Below, one piece after another: positions 36,001-54,000 of a DNA stretch of 64,000 nt. The position numbers were made by a program. How positions within the stretch are numbered: the first letter of the stretch is position 1; the number at the start of each line of letters is the position of its first letter. Source of the stretch: Myxococcota bacterium (lineage in GTDB: Bacteria; Myxococcota_A; UBA9160; UBA6930). The stretch spans positions 544,001 through 608,000 of the forward strand of contig OZ245015.1 in the NCBI GenBank assembly GCA_965223705.1, read 5' to 3'.

Positions 36001-39000
36001 GACTTGTCGCCGGTTCATTTCCTCCGGGAAGGGGTTCCTTCGGTCACTGGTTCGAAGCCCGGCCTCGATGTGCCCCGTCGCGACGCCGCAGTGAAAGCCC
36101 ACGAATGCCCCCACGAACGCGGTCATCGTGTCGCCTTGCACGAGAATGAATTCGGGCTCTACGCGCAGAACGAGCTCCCGGAGCGATCCGATAGCCCGTT
36201 GGCAGAACTCGAGCGGAGTCTGATTCGGGCGCATCAAGTCGAGCGAGTGATCGACCTCGATGCCGAACGCCGGGAGGAGGTCTGCGACGAGTTCTCGGTG
36301 TTGCCCTGTACTGACGACGCAACTTTCGACAGCGGCACTCGCTTCGCGAAGCGCACGGATCACCGGAGCGACCTTGATCGCTTCGGGCCGCGTACCGAAC
36401 ACCGTCATCACCACGGAGCGGCTCATGACGGAAGCCCCCTTCGGATCTCCACCCGTACGAAGTGATGCGCAGTGAACGCCACCCAAAGGATGAGGAACGG
36501 GACGCAGACAACGAAGAGTCGCCCCGTGCTGCTCATCAGCGAGTGCGAGGCGGTGCCGAGGGCGAACATGCCGAGTAGGACGAGAAGGCCCGCCGGAACG
36601 GACGAGCGGTTTCGCCAAGCGGCGACGAAGGAGGCTCCGAAGGCCATCAGCAGGGCGGCGTTGGGCAGGACGTAGCCGAGCGTCCGGATACTCTGCCCTC
36701 GACGCGACCACGGGTAGTTGAACAACAACCGAGAGACGTTCCCGACCCAGTTCTTCGCGTACGCGGTCGGGTTCGTGCGCAGGTTCTCGACCACTCGGGC
36801 CTTGAACCGACGATCCGCCTCGATGGCGGGCAGCGCCGCCATCGCTTCGAGGAAAGTCAGGTGATCGCGGCGGAGATCTTCGTGCTCGCGGACGGTCTCG
36901 ATCGGAAGCCAGGTCCCCGAAAGGCCCGGGCCATCGACGGTCATCCAGTAGAGAACGTCCCCGCCGTTCGTCCCCCAGTAGAACAACTGATCCGTGAGCT
37001 GATAGGTGTACGCGAGGTAGGGCGCGCACACGGCCAACGCGCCGGCAAAAACCCACTCCGGCGCGTGCGCTTCGGCGACGGCCTGGCGGATTGCCGGGAC
37101 GGCGCGCGCCATCACGAGGAGCACGAGAACCGCGAGAACGACGTAGCCGTACGCGACTTTCGTGAGGACGAAGCCGCCGAGAAGAGCCGCTGCGAGCCAC
37201 GGGTCGCGAGCCGCCGCCGCGGAACCGCTCTGCCAACGCAGGAAGTGGAAGGCGAACCCGAGCCACAACGCGATGGCCAGGGGCTCGCTCAACAGGTCAC
37301 CCGAGAGCAACCACAGGGGTGGATAACTCGCCAGGGCGGCCGCCGCCCATGCGGCGGTCCGCCGGTCCGAGAGCCTGGCGACCAGCGCAAATAGGTAGGC
37401 CAAAGCGATGAGGACCAGCGGGATCTGGGTGAAGCGAAGGGCCGGACCGTCGAGGCCGGCGGCCAGAAACGGTGCCAGGTAGAGCGGGTACCCCGGCCCG
37501 TTCTCGATGAGGCCGGTTTCGGGCTGGGCGTAGCCTCCGGCGAGGAGGTTCTCGGCGTAGCTCTTGTACCGGGCTTCGTCTCCGATCAGCGGCTCGCCCC
37601 GGTCGAGGGCGATGTTGGCCGCGAGGAGGGCGGCGAGCAGGGTCAGGGCTGCGGCAGAGCGAACCGAATCCACAACCCGAAGTGTAGTGTATTCACTACG
37701 TATTGGTCGCTATCGGGCGGAGGCGCATTCGGCCGCCCAACGATCCTTGAACATCTCCATGAAAAGCGCGGAGGGTCCCTCTCCAGCGATCATCGAGAAG
37801 TGTCCGCTGCCAGCGAACTCCGTCCCGCAGGACGCGCATTCGGCATCGAATTCGGAAACGGTGGCGAGGCAGGACAAGCAGAGGCGGTCTTCGTGTTGCT
37901 GGTTCATGTCGAACTCCTTGTTTGTGAAGGAGTCGATCTCGAGCTGTTTTCGGATCACCCGCCCGGCCATCAAAAAAAACTGCGCAAGGTGATCCGGTTC
38001 GGGTGCCGCGGCGACTTCTCAGCAGATCGTGCGTTGGATGTACCCACCCGGAACAGCAACACACAAAGAGCAGCCGGTACGGCGCATCGCTCGATCGAAA
38101 CGGCGCCGGCCCCCTAGGGTCGGCGCCGCTCCGTCGTTCCGGAGACGGAACGGCGGGCGGAGCTCGCGGCAGGGTGTCGCGCGCTCGAGCCCACGGCGTG
38201 CATGGGGACGGCAGCCCCGCGCTACCCTTGGGTCACCCGGTGCCTGATGCGGGGACGGGTGCCACCCACAAAGCAAGGAGGGTGAGCATGCCCAATTCAC
38301 GAACAACCTTTGACTGGAAGAACCGAGTCTCGGTGCGCGCGACGCGTGCGCGGCTACAAGCCGCGCTATTGGCTGCCGGCGTCGCGTGCGCGATCGGGCC
38401 ATGGCAGGAGGCCTACGCCGGCATCATCGTCGGAGAGGAGAAGACGCAGAGTCTTCCCCTGGGCGCTGTCGTACCCGATTCGAGCACGGTGGGGGTGGTA
38501 TTTCCGCCCTCGCATTATCGGTTTCCCGGCTATGCCGGGTACGGCTATGGCTACGGCTATCCGTACGGATCGTTTGGAGCTTTTGGCTACTACGGCCGGG
38601 AGTACCTCCACTTCAATCCGGACCGAGCCTTCCGCCGCCATCTTCGCGCCGACCAAGTCGGGAGCATGCGCGAACTGCGGCGCGGGAGGCGCTAGAGCTT
38701 AGAGCTCGCCGGGGCGGGGGTGAACCCGCCCCGGTTTCTCTTTTCGGGAAGTCTTGCACGGGGATCGAGGTTTGGCCGTGGCCAGTGGGGGCACCGTGCT
38801 CAAACATCCTCGCGCCGATGCGGCAACGAGGTCGCCTCGCGTGCCTCGGCGGCGCTGCGGAACTGCGCGCGGTACCCCCACTGGCCACGGCCTCGCGACG
38901 CCTAGCTAGACCGCCTCCCTTGACCCCGTCTGCAGAAGATTTCTAGCCGGCGGGTATCACCGCTGGGACGAAGAAGAAGTCGCCGGACTCGTGGCCCGCG

Positions 39001-51000: not shown

Positions 51001-54000
51001 CGCTGGCCGCGCATCTCGCGGCTCGTTCCGAAGTCGCGGGCACTTCCCGTTTGGATCACCGCGAAGGAAAAAACGATTTATCCCCACGGGGCAGTGCGGT
51101 ACAGTACGATCGAGTCCTCGGTTAGAGAGGGTCGGCGACAAGCGATGGATCGAGAACAGTGGAAGACAGTTCTCAACGCGGCGAGCGACGGCGACGCGCC
51201 CGCCTTGCTTCAGCTGACCCGCCAGGTCAGCCGGCTCCTCGAGGAGTACGGCGCCTACACCGTCCGTAAGGAGTGGGCCGAGGACGTCCAGAAGATCACG
51301 GCAGCGGTTCTCGAGGGATGGGCCGAGGGTGGAACCCTCGCCGCGGACACCCATATCGAAAGCGTCACCAAGAACCGTTTTTGGGGTCAGATTCTCGATC
51401 TGATGACCCAGAACGATATGAAGGCGGGCCAGCTCTTCTTTCCGACCGTTCGCCGTCTACTCGGCAAGTGGGACGGGGCCCGGCGCGCCGAGGCGCAATG
51501 GGACGACATCGTTCAGGAGACCGCGCACCAGCTCTGGGAGAGCTGGATGAAGGGTGGGGTGAAACGCCCCTGGTCGCTGCTGTGCACCATCGCGAAACGC
51601 CGTTATCTCGACAAAATCCGCGCCGAGCGCCACACGGAAGAAATCGAGGATGAAGCTTCTGAGGAGCTGGGTGACAGCCCCGGCGAGCTCTTCACCGAAC
51701 AAGCCCTGGCCGTCCTCGAAGAAGAGGAGCGGCAGGTCATTGTCCAAATGGACATCGAGGGCAGGACGCGCGTCGAAATCGCGGATTCTCTCGGCGTGAC
51801 CGAAGGCCAGGTGCTTTCGACGCGCCGGGCGGGGTTGCGCCGCATCTGGAGATGGCTCGGCCGCGACCTTCCACCGACCTCGCGCGCCGTCTGGGAGGAG
51901 ATGTTCAAAGGCGCGCGGCGAATTCCCCCGGAGGAAGTGGCCGCCAAGCTCAGTATGGAGACCGCCGAGGTCGTCGAGATCCTCGAAGAGGCGCGCGTCC
52001 TCACGGGGCTCGCATGAGGGAAAAAACTCGCTGTGAAGTGATCCGGAACGTCCACTGGCGCGACTTGGGTCCAGGGGAAGGTGGGTCATCGAACCCGCCG
52101 ACAGGAGCCTCGACGAAAAGGATCGTCCCATGACCAGCAAGGCCCACGAGCCTGACTTCGAAGACCGACTCGAGCGGTCCACCGGTGCCCGCCTGCGCGG
52201 CGAAGACCCGCGCGAGCTGACCTGGCACCCCTCGGACAGCGAGTTGCTCGCGTTCCACGCAGAGCCTCGCGGGATGGAGGCCTCATTGCGGTCCCGCATC
52301 CGCGATCACTTCGGGAGCTGCGGATCGTGCCGCGATGCGTTCGCGGCGTTCTCGGTACTGGCCGCCGCGCCTGCGCCCGAGGTGGCGCGCGCAGCGGCCG
52401 CCGATTCTCCTTCTCTGCTCGAGCGCTTGTTCGAGCCGTTCCGCGCGATGTTCGCGCAGCCCGCCTTGGTCTCGGCCATGGTCGCGGTCTTCGCCGTCGC
52501 GGGTTTTCTCGCGATCGACCCGATCGATCCGGGCCCCGGTGAGGGCACCCGGGGCGTGTATCCCATCGAACGCACGCCCTCGGTCGATCCCGGCACGCTC
52601 GGTTCGGCGACCGTCACCCTGGCGAGCGGCTTTCCGACGCGAGTCGAAGCCGATGCGTTGTCGGGTTCTCGGGAAGTCGTCCTCGAGCTCCTCGCGCCTT
52701 CGACGCTTCCGGCGGGGCCCGAGTTCACGGTCCGCTTGATGGGGCCCGAGGGGGCCCGCGAAGCGGTCGCCCAGCTCGGCGAAGAAGCTCCGCCGCGGAT
52801 CGCCGCGATTTTTCCGGCCGAGGCTCTGACGCCCGGCGCGTATCGGGTGACGGTCTTTCTACCCTCCGACGCGACGTCCGCGCTCGCGACCTACGAACTC
52901 GAGATCGAGTGATGCACCGTCTTCTCGTCGCCGCGGCGTTTCTCGCGCTGGCGTGCGTCGACGGCGGACGAAGCCCCGAAGCGAGTCTCGACGGTGCGCT
53001 GCACGTGACGTGTCGCGGGGCTGGCACAGCCGTGACGGTGATTGGATCGCGCGCCGCAGACGCAGGGCGCGTCGTCGCCCGGGACGTTCGGACCGACGCC
53101 GGACGCGGCAGCCGCTGCGAAGAGTCCTAGACGGCTCGCTTCTCTCTGAATCCAGCGATCTCAGTCGCACTGAATCCCAGCTCGACGAGGATCTCGTCGG
53201 TGTGTTCGCCGAGCTCCGGAGCCCGATCGCGGATTTCGGCGGGTGTCCGAGACAGTTGGACCGGGGTCGTGGCGAGAGGCGCCGGCGCGCGCAGGCCCGG
53301 GAAATCGACTCCGGCGAGGAAGCCCGCGGCCTGAATATGCGGGTCGTCGAGCGCCTGCTGGGGGGAGTAGACCGGACCCGCCGGGATGCGCGCGGCCTCG
53401 AGCTCGGAAATCGCTTGGGCGGTGGTTCGCTCAGCGCACCACGCCTGCATTCGTTCGCTCAGAAGTTCGCCGTTCTCACCGCGCTTCCTGTCGTCGGCGA
53501 AGCGGGGATCTTCAAGCCACGCCTCCGCTCCGACGAGTTCTGCCCAGCGCCGGAACAGTGGCTCGCCGATCACCTGGGCCATGATCCAGCCGTCGCGCGT
53601 TTGAAACGCGTCGGAAGGGCCGGCGAGTTGGTTGCGGTTCCCGGTGCCGACGCGGTTGGGCGCGTCGAGGGCCTGCTCGATGAGATACGCGTTCGAGACC
53701 GTCAGCGCGCTCGCCAGGAGCGAGCCCGAAACCACTTGTCCTTCGCCCGATTTCTGACGCTCGAGGATCGCCATCACCGTGCCGAAAGCGTGGAGGATCG
53801 CGGTGGTGAAGTCGACGTAGGGCATTGCGGATTTCATCGGGCTTTCTGCGTCTCCGCCGAGATGCATGTTGCCCGACATCGCCTGGCCGATCGCGTCGAA
53901 GCCGACGCGCTCGCTGTAGGGTCCGCCCGCACCGTACGCCGTAATGTGCGTCAAGATGATGTCGGGCTTGATCGAACGGAGATGCTCGTAGTCGAGCCCC

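Follow-up and report, generated by a model that had tools for sequence, protein, structure and literature searches.

Does a curli-type channel found beside a row of small secreted repeat proteins in a Myxococcota bacterium belong to a fibre secretion system of its own? The initial annotation proposed that it does, with subunits unrelated to CsgA and with its own ECF sigma regulon. In the window, which is the whole 64-kb stretch of DNA analysed, gene calls and Pfam placed every module gene at the position given earlier. Our best reading, to which we assign a probability of roughly 0.6, is that, next to curli and Hfa, the module is a third export system of the CsgG type, which would secrete non-curlin subunits and polymerise them into surface fibres. 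We found no publication describing this module, which is apparently undescribed. Its features are as follows, with the five two-repeat proteins named REP1 to REP5 and "motif" standing for GTGATCC-N16-CGAC.

37710..37907, minus strand: CxxC-like protein of 65 aa with two such motifs, 3' of a GTGATCC-type site and beyond the earlier span
37932-37958 (minus) and 37989-38015 (plus): divergent pair of exact motif sites
38943..41480, minus: secreted protein of 845 aa with Sel1, a long charged helical region, an Ig-like domain and a caspase (C14) (Pfam)
41479..42303, plus: alpha/beta-hydrolase (Pfam), N terminus lipoprotein-like, read divergently from the Sel1-caspase gene
41614..41640, minus: one-mismatch motif for the Sel1-caspase gene, inside the antisense hydrolase ORF
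42300..43709, minus: autotransporter beta-barrel with a short passenger (PF03797, E 6e-66)
43758..45779, minus: secreted caspase (C14) with C-terminal DUF4384 (Pfam)
45779..46324, minus: signal peptide and OmpA-like peptidoglycan-binding domain (PF00691, E 6e-22)
46349..47875, minus: CsgG/HfaB-fold lipoprotein channel with PG_binding_1 and DUF4384, 508 aa (Pfam, fold search)
47865..48200, minus: c7, a secreted, conserved channel partner of ~100 aa with a C-terminal Cys pair (alignment of homologues)
48244..48270, minus: exact motif at the head of the c7-channel-OmpA-caspase-autotransporter run
48267..48518, minus: acidic ORF of 83 aa, own motif site 48549-48575
48670..48996, minus: REP5, with signal peptide, two repeats and C-terminal Cys pair; motif 49048-49074
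49142..49465, minus: REP4; terminator-like hairpin 49092-49117; one-mismatch motif 49521-49547
49615..49965, minus: REP3; terminator-like hairpin 49563-49590; one-mismatch motif 50022-50048
50114..50440, minus: REP2; terminator-like hairpin 50061-50091; motif 50507-50533
50640..50975, minus: REP1; terminator-like hairpin 50582-50615; motif 51033-51059
51145..52017, plus: ECF-type sigma factor of 290 aa, sigma2'-sigma2-sigma4-sigma4' (nested duplication)
52038..52064, plus: exact motif 5' of the anti-sigma gene
52130..52912, plus: putative anti-sigma factor with HxxxCxxC (residues 60-67) and one transmembrane helix (111-129)
52909..53130, plus: ORF of 73 aa with a lipoprotein-like start and no homologue in the fetched loci; membership doubtful

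That the channel has a CsgG fold, with PG-binding and DUF4384 domains fused to it, was reproduced by our own AF2 model, Foldseek, VIA and Pfam. The top ten Foldseek rows for the model were all CsgG entries (best E 5.3e-7), with a modest target TM of about 0.4-0.5 and ~10-16% structural-alignment identity, and CsgG also came first in the VIA fold search (Z 11.9, rmsd 5.3, 160 aligned). At the sequence level, the closest curated model was HfaB (NF037935; E 3e-11, profile positions 17-261 of 264). The channel reached the cut-off neither of this model (42.9 bits vs 300) nor of PF03783 for CsgG (12.8 bits vs 20.8), and 30 of 43 channel homologues had a weak Pfam CsgG match. A regular expression found a lipobox-like motif in the window channel and in 38 of the 43 homologues.

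The holdfast anchor of Caulobacterales consists of HfaB with HfaA, HfaD and HfaE; HfaB is described as a CsgG-like lipoprotein that exports non-CsgA amyloid-like proteins and is needed to place them on the surface (10.1101/2022.07.20.500906). The module channel differs from it in its extra C-terminal domains, and no linked holdfast polysaccharide genes were seen. An unlikely alternative is an Hfa-like anchor or coat, in which exported REPs form short, cell-bound, SDS-resistant polymers that tether polysaccharide, the autotransporter or enzymes. The HfaB match agrees with this, as do the two wall-binding domains (PG_binding_1 and OmpA), the low Q/N content of the REPs, and a glycosyltransferase-like gene and a UDP-GlcNAc 2-epimerase gene just outside the module (Pfam). 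However, the locus has no match to HfaA or HfaD, for which a Caulobacter control scored over the cut-off. The glycosyltransferase-like gene has no match in related loci, and no recurrent polysaccharide export cluster was found in 80 gene maps. Furthermore, the presence of five REP cassettes, each with its own predicted promoter, suggests bulk REP production.

We determined how these cassettes might be controlled from the distribution of the motif. The window contains eight exact GTGATCC-N14-18-CGAC sites where 0.58 would be expected, and 0/100 shuffles reached eight. The spacer is 16 in every site of the locus, and a recount returned the distance of 57-160 bases between the motif 5' end and the start codon that had been reported. 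The claim that each of the seven small genes has its own motif holds exactly for five of them, while the sites at 49521-49547 and 50022-50048 carry one mismatch. One mismatch was also confirmed for the Sel1-caspase gene, for which G189, a genome of the same class, has an exact site in the same placement. The divergent exact pair, which recurs in G189 and G106, falls outside the span originally given.

Motif clusters are found only in the five genomes that encode this sigma factor, with 11 copies in G189, six in G106, seven in G097 and five in G082. In 77 GTDB loci of genomes without this sigma factor, there are 0-1 copies. This covariation suggests that the motif serves as a promoter element recognised by the sigma factor; the ECF control of the module is lineage-specific. 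The sigma factor had been counted in three genomes; close orthologues (53-60% identity) instead occur in five of the 225 genomes of the class, this one included, within a compact family of some 36 sequences. The sigma factor follows known pairs of ECF and zinc-binding anti-sigma factors in combining sigma2 with sigma4, in having a membrane anti-sigma with HxxxCxxC encoded next to it, and in a two-part motif whose halves stand 16 bases apart. It departs from them in that each DNA-binding domain has a second copy, the two duplications being nested, and in that the sigma gene has no motif upstream. The putative anti-sigma gene, which has no match in Pfam or NCBIfam, adjoins the sigma gene in G189, G082, G106 and G097 as well. 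The sequence TGATCC also turns up in search listings of papers on RpoE-ChrR-type ECFs.

The module itself is widespread, its channel being encoded in 363 GTDB stretches. Its parts co-occur in three sets of genomes, whose counts come from related and hence non-independent samples. Within its own class (225 genomes), a full-length channel is present in seven genomes, with REPs in six and c7 in six, all among those seven; in the remaining one, a c7-like gene and a Q/N gene of six repeats adjoin the channel. The order of G225 (107 genomes) has 33 genomes with the channel, 35 with REPs and 31 with both. The corresponding numbers for the family of G226 (251 genomes) are 40, 26 and 24, with 22/22 for the closest channels. 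An OmpA-like gene is present in 63 of 80 related loci, whereas the autotransporter gene, which has no catalytic Pfam domain, is found in all five ECF genomes and a minority of other loci.

The caspases recur as well. His and Cys motifs are intact in both window proteins (GHG at 674 and DSC at 723 in the Sel1-caspase; GHG at 136 and DSC at 192 in the DUF4384-caspase), and orthologues of the former occur in G189, G106, G082, G097 and L098. Caspases are present in 54/80 related loci, with the His-Cys dyad in 44 of 51 long homologues; nine of the 46 loci with full flanks have none within 10 kb. Together with the recurrent ECF pairs, a CHASE2 cyclase in 38/87 and Crp in 32/87 mapped loci, and FHA/PP2C/kinase genes in A. 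lipoferum 4B, this would fit an envelope signalling or stress device. Here, a CsgG-fold ring or scaffold resembling PelC or FlgT would face the periplasm, where REPs polymerise or bind and activate the caspases, with a relay to the anti-sigma factor or a CHASE2 cyclase-Crp pair. The fold is indeed shared by non-pore or non-fibre proteins (PelC, FlgT, TolB and TraT in VIA), of which PelC and FlgT are among the next matches. We nevertheless judge this device improbable. CsgG outranks PelC and FlgT in both fold searches, two putative beta-hairpin segments (141-167 and 203-224; pLDDT <50 in the monomer model) are kept in the channel alignment, and REP copies are expanded to up to 12 matches per genome. 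Since the regulators vary by lineage while the channel, c7 (or c8) and the repeats persist, the pattern is that of an output rather than a sensor.

The initial annotation placed two ~37-residue repeats in five of the seven small genes, and unit-profile scoring agreed, even with a profile built without these proteins. The seven are not one set: beside the five REPs, c7 and the 83-aa acidic ORF differ, the latter lacking a repeat unit and any homologue in the fetched loci. It is possibly a decayed REP. The 11 database relatives mentioned earlier hold as a count at E<=1e-10, whereas 73 clusters match at E<=1e-3, including three of the window's own and one 871-aa match that is probably spurious. 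Two units with a period of 36-37 residues are found in 94 of 111 REP proteins. The first unit begins <=40 residues from Met in 99/111, and the C-terminal end lies <=12 residues past the last unit in 93/111. Open-ended solenoids without capping domains are described in PMC10192328 as polymerising by sheet augmentation.

A six-repeat homologue was modelled with a pLDDT of 87 and is all-strand past the signal region, with beta-solenoids as its top fold matches. For the Greek-key rung fold of Fap, FapC was at Foldseek rank 2, which was non-significant (E 0.04, probability 0.02), and the CsgA fibril aligned with Z 10-11 but rmsd 8.2. Beta-solenoids are also frequent in non-fibre proteins. That REPs leave through the pore yet act as soluble mini-solenoids (adhesins, or binders of ice or glycans), monomeric or in small oligomers and capped by a C-terminal disulfide, is very improbable. 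In favour of this, the lowest-rmsd matches are non-fibre solenoids (an ice-binding protein with Z 10.8, rmsd 2.3 and 119 aligned, and TPS secretion domains) and 55/69 REPs conserve the Cys pair that could serve as cap. Against it, 14/69 lack the pair, among them the REPs of G189 and those of the Q/N type, repeat number varies between 2 and 6 with no cap domains gained, and two rungs would leave the core open at both ends.

We compared the module with curli, or type VIII secretion, and with Fap. The module and curli share a CsgG-fold lipoprotein channel, a small partner gene adjoining it, and small repeat proteins that are exported by Sec and for which open-ended beta-solenoids are predicted. 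Conversely, the module has no CsgF match, the fusion of its channel adds PG-binding and DUF4384 domains, and the place of CsgD is taken by caspases, OmpA and control through an ECF factor (or Crp/cAMP). Each repeat spans 36-37 residues and has three to four strand segments, unlike the ~20-residue arches of curli, and the window REPs (Q+N only 2-8%) are Q/N-poor compared with curli and Fap. The curlin profile PF07012 had nothing over the cut-off in the genome and none at the locus. Nor does curlin figure in the list of 25 families for 69 REPs, and it matched none of 11 Q/N-type or other repeat-slot proteins.

Fap of Pseudomonas resembles the module in repeat length (38-39 residues in FapC) and in an operon that is described as including a periplasmic cysteine protease and FapF, a 12-stranded autotransporter-like barrel. 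The FapF pore and C39 FapD are not at the locus, where the main pore is CsgG-fold and PF03797 and C14 proteases (PF00656) are found instead. The FapB/C motif N.A.G..N was found in 0/5 window REPs and 0/43 REP-cluster proteins, and NqQ-N in 0/5 window REPs. A partial match was limited to the sister c9 and c8 families, with N-x-A-A-G-x-G-N in 15/43 sister c9 repeat proteins (0.03 shuffled).

For the partner gene c7, 22 of the 27 called genes lie immediately 5' of the channel, as does c7 in nine of 10 further loci, the "channel-only" ones. Gene position and layout make it a possible CsgF analogue, although PF10614 (CsgF) had 0 matches in the genome (95% complete) and none for c7. It has no profile match to REPs outside the signal peptide. 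Of these 10 loci (from 16 such genomes in the family of G226), six have Q/N-rich repeat genes in the REP slot; one contains five tandem two-repeat Q/N-rich genes, like the window. The Q/N-type proteins end one residue after the last unit. The L190 locus has neither c7 nor repeats, and 14 of 46 related loci with full flanks have no recognisable repeat gene. The Q-x-G-x-x-N turn in the Q/N-rich repeats of sister loci, together with the FapC-like motif, leaves a remote kinship between REPs and CsgA possible. The wording "unrelated to CsgA" was too strong. With this amendment, a curli-like export system with non-CsgA subunits and its own ECF regulon is our best reading, strengthened by co-occurrence in three lineages, near-uncapped repeats of variable number and motif-sigma covariation.

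Under this export reading, an envelope signal would cause the membrane anti-sigma to free the sigma factor. This may then fire the five promoter-gene-terminator REP cassettes, whose layout and motif are observed and whose promoter use is predicted, as well as the machinery operon (c7, channel, OmpA, caspase and autotransporter), the Sel1-caspase gene and its own anti-sigma gene, the last as negative feedback. REPs would cross the inner membrane unfolded via Sec and exit through an oligomeric lipoprotein pore, fixed to the wall by its own PG-binding domain and the OmpA protein. The models support the fold of this pore, and CsgG and HfaB suggest its oligomerisation and transport. At the pore, c7 may template growth as CsgF does, judging by gene position and layout. 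Sequence anatomy and the natural six-rung homologue suggest that the two-rung, little-capped subunits stack into a continuous solenoid and so complete their core. In the weakest step, the periplasmic caspases might process a component or clear mis-assembled subunits, like FapD, described as a periplasmic cysteine protease required for secretion (PMC5557850).

A broader and tentative reading, which we consider possible though well short of probable, is that these loci add a third major class to the functional amyloids of Gram-negative bacteria, spread over Alpha-, Beta- and Gammaproteobacteria and Myxococcota-labelled genomes. In this class, a curli-type pore anchored to the wall would be coupled to a proteolytic licensing step like that of Fap, carried out by periplasmic caspases. 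The ~36-residue rung, whose Q/N-poor, Q/N-rich and FapC-like forms share a single gene slot, would be an evolutionary link between curlin and Fap. If so, secreted bacterial caspases would gain a role in fibre biogenesis, and the class may explain the curli-independent amyloid matrix in Azospirillum.

Smaller genes of the locus recur too. The loci of G189 and G106 encode homologues of the 65-aa CxxC-like protein (45-49% identity), and the alpha/beta-hydrolase has orthologues in G189 and G097 (46-47%). A remote motif site in the same genome lies 5' of a 59-aa ORF, whose G189 homologue (49% identity, E 2e-11) is also preceded by the motif.

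The locus holds five genes for small secreted two-repeat proteins (REP1-REP5), a CsgG/HfaB-fold lipoprotein with PG_binding_1 and DUF4384 domains (the channel) and c7, a secreted protein encoded just upstream of the channel. The module is a real, conserved feature and apparently new to science; no paper on it was found in the CC-licensed PMC and bioRxiv literature. In window positions, its parts are:

50975 to 48670, minus strand: five REP genes, first in transcription order
between the REP genes and c7, minus strand: 83-aa ORF
48200-47865, minus strand: c7
47875-46349, minus strand: channel
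downstream of the channel, minus strand: OmpA-domain protein, then caspase-DUF4384, then autotransporter
apart from the machinery run, minus strand: Sel1-caspase
plus strand: ECF sigma, putative anti-sigma and hydrolase

The GC content of the locus is similar to that of the remainder of the window. Each REP has its own site of the motif GTGATCC-N16-CGAC, the putative promoter of the ECF sigma, and a strong hairpin with a T-run closes each of REP1-4, so these genes look like separate cassettes. Conversely, c7 and the channel start share an 11-base overlap and the genes after the channel are closely packed, which makes the machinery look like one operon. Four DNA runs from one study, which may be the source sample, contained no indels, and coverage was broken in the near-identical REP copies. 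RNA data covering the locus were looked for and not found. The Sel1-caspase and hydrolase starts lie back to back (41479-41640), with the caspase motif site within the hydrolase coding sequence, as in G189. Just past the module (35293-37673) are genes for a UDP-GlcNAc 2-epimerase and a PMT_2-like membrane glycosyltransferase; the latter had no match in related loci.

Identity of the five REPs to REP4 ranges from 34 to 87%. The REP profile matched 73 representatives, 11 of them at E<=1e-10, but no consistent Pfam or NCBIfam family. A PDB sequence search with this profile gave nothing useful, and the Atlas returned unnamed clusters only (0.76 for REP, 0.94 for c7). The repeat unit spans 36-37 residues, with near-invariant small residues in A-x-G-x-x-[AS]-x-A followed by I-G. 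The initial annotation had described two such units in each of five small genes. A unit profile made without the window proteins bears this out, recovering both units in every window REP, although the second unit of REP5 matched weakly (E 0.007). Two units were found in 94 of 111 REP proteins; the first begins within 40 residues of the Met in 99 of them, and the last lies at most 12 residues from the C-terminal end in 93. Four genomes (G327, G328, G329 and G333) have 6-12 REP matches each, spread over several contigs and partly remote from the channel locus.

A natural six-repeat REP homologue (from locus L108), not a window REP, served for structure modelling. Its model (pLDDT 87, regular strands, period 36) supports a predicted rung-on-rung solenoid for the REP family. 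Stacking may also occur between chains, as favoured by an earlier four-copy prediction. Foldseek gave no match to this model at E<=1e-3, while VIA returned generic solenoids at Z 10-11.6, among them the CsgA fibril at poor rmsd; FapC was absent from the top 50 of a second structure comparison. The rmsd was lower to right-handed than to left-handed beta-helices. Since AF2 handedness is described as unreliable for solenoids (PMC10192328), nothing is drawn from this fit. The low Q+N share of the window REPs (2-8%) and a Cys pair in 55 of 69 aligned REPs count against an ordinary amyloid reading.

Neither a match to Pfam CsgG in the window channel protein nor CsgG in a channel-profile search of PDB sequences was found. 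PF03783 was matched weakly by 30 of 43 channel homologues, and 38 of the 43 have a lipobox-like motif. The proposed CsgG fold nevertheless held up on the AF2 model (pLDDT 75.5): the top ten Foldseek matches were all CsgG, and VIA placed CsgG first (Z 11.9), with chains of the FlgT ring and of PelC next, at a Z of about 9. Two hairpin segments are both present but have low confidence in the monomer model, and DUF4384 is modelled as an Ig-like sandwich. The channel family comprises 377 proteins among 8000 scored candidates, and 363 GTDB stretches with record titles including Alphaproteobacteria, Gammaproteobacteria, Rhodocyclaceae and Myxococcota. The GTDB loci analysed here are the best 80 of these 363. 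A second CsgG in Azospirillum-type loci proved to be a clustering artefact, as a single CsgG domain is present per locus in all 80. NanoporeDB may contain such channels, as unnamed models. At G258:C29, G295:C71 and G296:C59, the channel gene stops after the PG-binding domain and DUF4384 is an adjoining separate match, reflecting either natural splits or frameshifts.

The gene just before the channel belongs to the c7 family and is not a REP. Proteins of this family are secreted and ~100 aa long; a variable linker joins their conserved N-terminal segment to a beta-rich C-terminal part that contains a Cys pair. Of 27 called copies, 22 lie directly upstream of the channel. CsgF binds CsgG with its N terminus and anchors CsgB with its C terminus (PMC12822426). 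c7 resembles CsgF in position and layout but has no sequence match to it. Profile comparison did not support the c7 C terminus as a permuted REP rung, and modelling c7 in complex with three channel domains (score 0.00, with an uncertain fold of the partner) bears on neither side.

Channel, REP and c7 often occur together. Among the 225 genomes of the same class, 7 have a full-length channel (excluding 12 weaker partial matches), 6 of these have REPs and the same 6 have c7. In the seventh, G216, a c7-like gene and a six-repeat gene of the Q/N type (Q/N-rich repeat genes occupying the REP slot) adjoin the channel. The order of G225 (107 genomes) has channels in 33 and REPs in 35: 31 genomes have both, 2 the channel alone and 4 REPs alone. 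This channel count derives from 35 profile matches, with two C-terminal-only matches dropped and two contig-edge fragments retained. For the family of G226 (251 genomes sampled), the numbers were 40 with a channel, 26 with REPs and 24 with both, including all 22 of the closest channels. Ten of its 16 channel-only loci were fetched; c7 adjoins the channel in nine, and Q/N-rich repeat genes (period 31-36) lie beside it in six. Locus L186 has two ~430-aa proteins that look repeat-like by eye, and neither c7 nor repeat genes were seen in L190. In L184 (5680-7896), c7 and the channel are preceded by a tandem array of five Q/N-rich genes, each of 88 aa with two repeats and three of them encoding identical proteins; this expansion is independent and mirrors the layout of the window. 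Because related genomes are not independent, no p-values are given.

The GTDB loci fall into two branches: c7 is present in 28 of the 80 and c8, another secreted protein, in 30, but never together, and the two families do not match each other. OmpA is present in 63 loci and a caspase in 54; repeat genes occur in 52, or in 32 of the 46 loci with at least 9 kb on both sides. Recall of c7, c8 and the repeat family c9 is optimistic since their profiles were derived from these same loci, with genes called by an in-house heuristic. Features of the c8 branch, seen in Azospirillum and Acetobacteraceae, are c9 repeats, DUF4399 proteins, a CHASE2 cyclase and Crp. The REP unit profile matches 41 of 45 c9 genes, but weakly (median E 0.0075), and a REP-c9 profile match (probability 91) takes in the signal peptide. 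An in-register alignment of Q/N and REP units (probability 8.8 versus a shuffled maximum of 4.9) was too weak to establish kinship. Homology among REP, Q/N and c9 units is suggested rather than established. A Q-x-G-x-x-N turn, presumably similar to that of curlins, occurs in 5 of 8 Q/N-type proteins versus 2 of 69 REPs. N-x-A-A-G-x-G-N, part of a published FapC motif (PMC12392863), was found in 15 of 43 c9 proteins and is not present in REPs.

The c7-branch locus of the cultured A. lipoferum 4B is annotated in RefSeq solely as hypothetical and DUF4384 proteins. The genes concerned are AZOLI_RS26745 (REP), RS32780 (c7), RS26730 (channel) and RS30575 (OmpA). On its plasmid (L180:14791-23530), FHA, PP2C, trypsin-like and Ser/Thr kinase genes come after the REP-c7-channel-OmpA core, with an integrase adjoining; the FHA/PP2C/kinase neighbourhood is a third regulatory setting. 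A ~200-280-aa protein is often near the channel (L183, L184, L187, L188, L191, L192, L030, L034, L042, L095, L098 and L108) and was of the DUF2807/DUF4097 type in the one scanned. Loci L062, L068, L071, L076, L079 and L085 share a four-gene block (~200, 465, 195 and 450 aa) beside OmpA without Pfam matches. No support for a link with smc02177, smc02178 and smb20495, which are Clr targets in S. meliloti, came from the literature excerpts consulted.

The module most likely works like curli or like Hfa, the Caulobacterales holdfast anchor. It is a member of neither, because the defining subunits of both were looked for and not found. The subunits known to leave through CsgG-type pores are of two types: curlins and Hfa proteins. 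We favour a fibre-building role, with a probability of about 0.6. An Hfa-like anchor seems less likely; the HfaB model does match the channel, at E 3e-11 but with a score well short of that model's cut-off. If fibre building is correct, REPs would be a third subunit type for CsgG-type pores, unannotated and widespread, with cultured, non-pathogenic carriers in A. lipoferum 4B, A. ramasamyi and other Azospirillum. Amyloid-like matrix has been reported in bacteria without curli genes (PMC13723633), for which the module is a candidate source. It also supplies possible new CsgG-like pores, predicted self-assembling building blocks of ~85 residues, an ECF sigma with doubled domains plus its predicted promoter, and a candidate role for DUF4384 and signal-peptide caspases.

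The N termini of both caspases are signal-like, and their His and Cys motifs are intact. They are retained in the branch without this sigma, so anti-sigma cleavage would not be their only job. By analogy, they may be likened to FapD of the Pseudomonas Fap amyloid system, whose active-site Cys is required for FapC secretion (PMC5557850). OmpA has been described in 14 metacaspase operons (PMC3501461).

Besides one sigma2 and one sigma4, the sigma factor (51145-52017) carries an extra sigma2 at the front (hhalign probability 91) and an extra sigma4 at the back (79). Its order, sigma2'-sigma2-sigma4-sigma4', is a nested duplication of both DNA-binding domains. This family is tight, comprising ~36 sequences in the database at no less than 49% identity, and a metagenome scan with the protein gave one short locus. 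The available part of the ECF classification supplement PMC7826278 had no passage on the module. The initial annotation had counted the sigma in three genomes, each with the module. The co-occurrence stands but the count does not, as close orthologues are present in five, including this one (G000, G082, G097, G106 and G189).

These five are also the genomes with motif clusters. Eight exact motif sites were found here versus 0.58 expected, with 11 in G189, 6 in G106, 7 in G097 and 5 in G082. Sites were absent from G216 and G002, which have the channel without this sigma, and from within 20 kb of a 39% partial sigma match in G020; 77 other GTDB loci had none (72) or one (5). Eleven locus sites have at most one mismatch, all with a 16-base spacer; a one-mismatch match inside REP4 was left out. 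The genes following these sites are not homologous, and both boxes are conserved although the spacers have diverged; duplication of genes is therefore an insufficient explanation on its own. The sigma gene itself has no motif, and there was no excess of sigma-70 promoters. The plus-strand motif at 37989 is followed by ~270 bases (38016-38290) without a convincing ORF, containing a GC-rich inverted repeat like the REP terminator stems; this is possibly a small RNA, and no Rfam family matched in 36000-54000. Genome-wide, a loose pattern occurs 44 times, eight of them within this locus. In a matrix scan, 7 of 18 sites lay outside the locus, three preceding plausible small ORFs. Strong remote sites at G000:C1:986151 (minus), 936561 (plus) and 1755681 (plus) lie upstream of ORFs of 84 aa (with a signal peptide), 108 aa and 59 aa, which probably also belong to the regulon. 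One of the three has a homologue in G189 that is likewise preceded by the motif.
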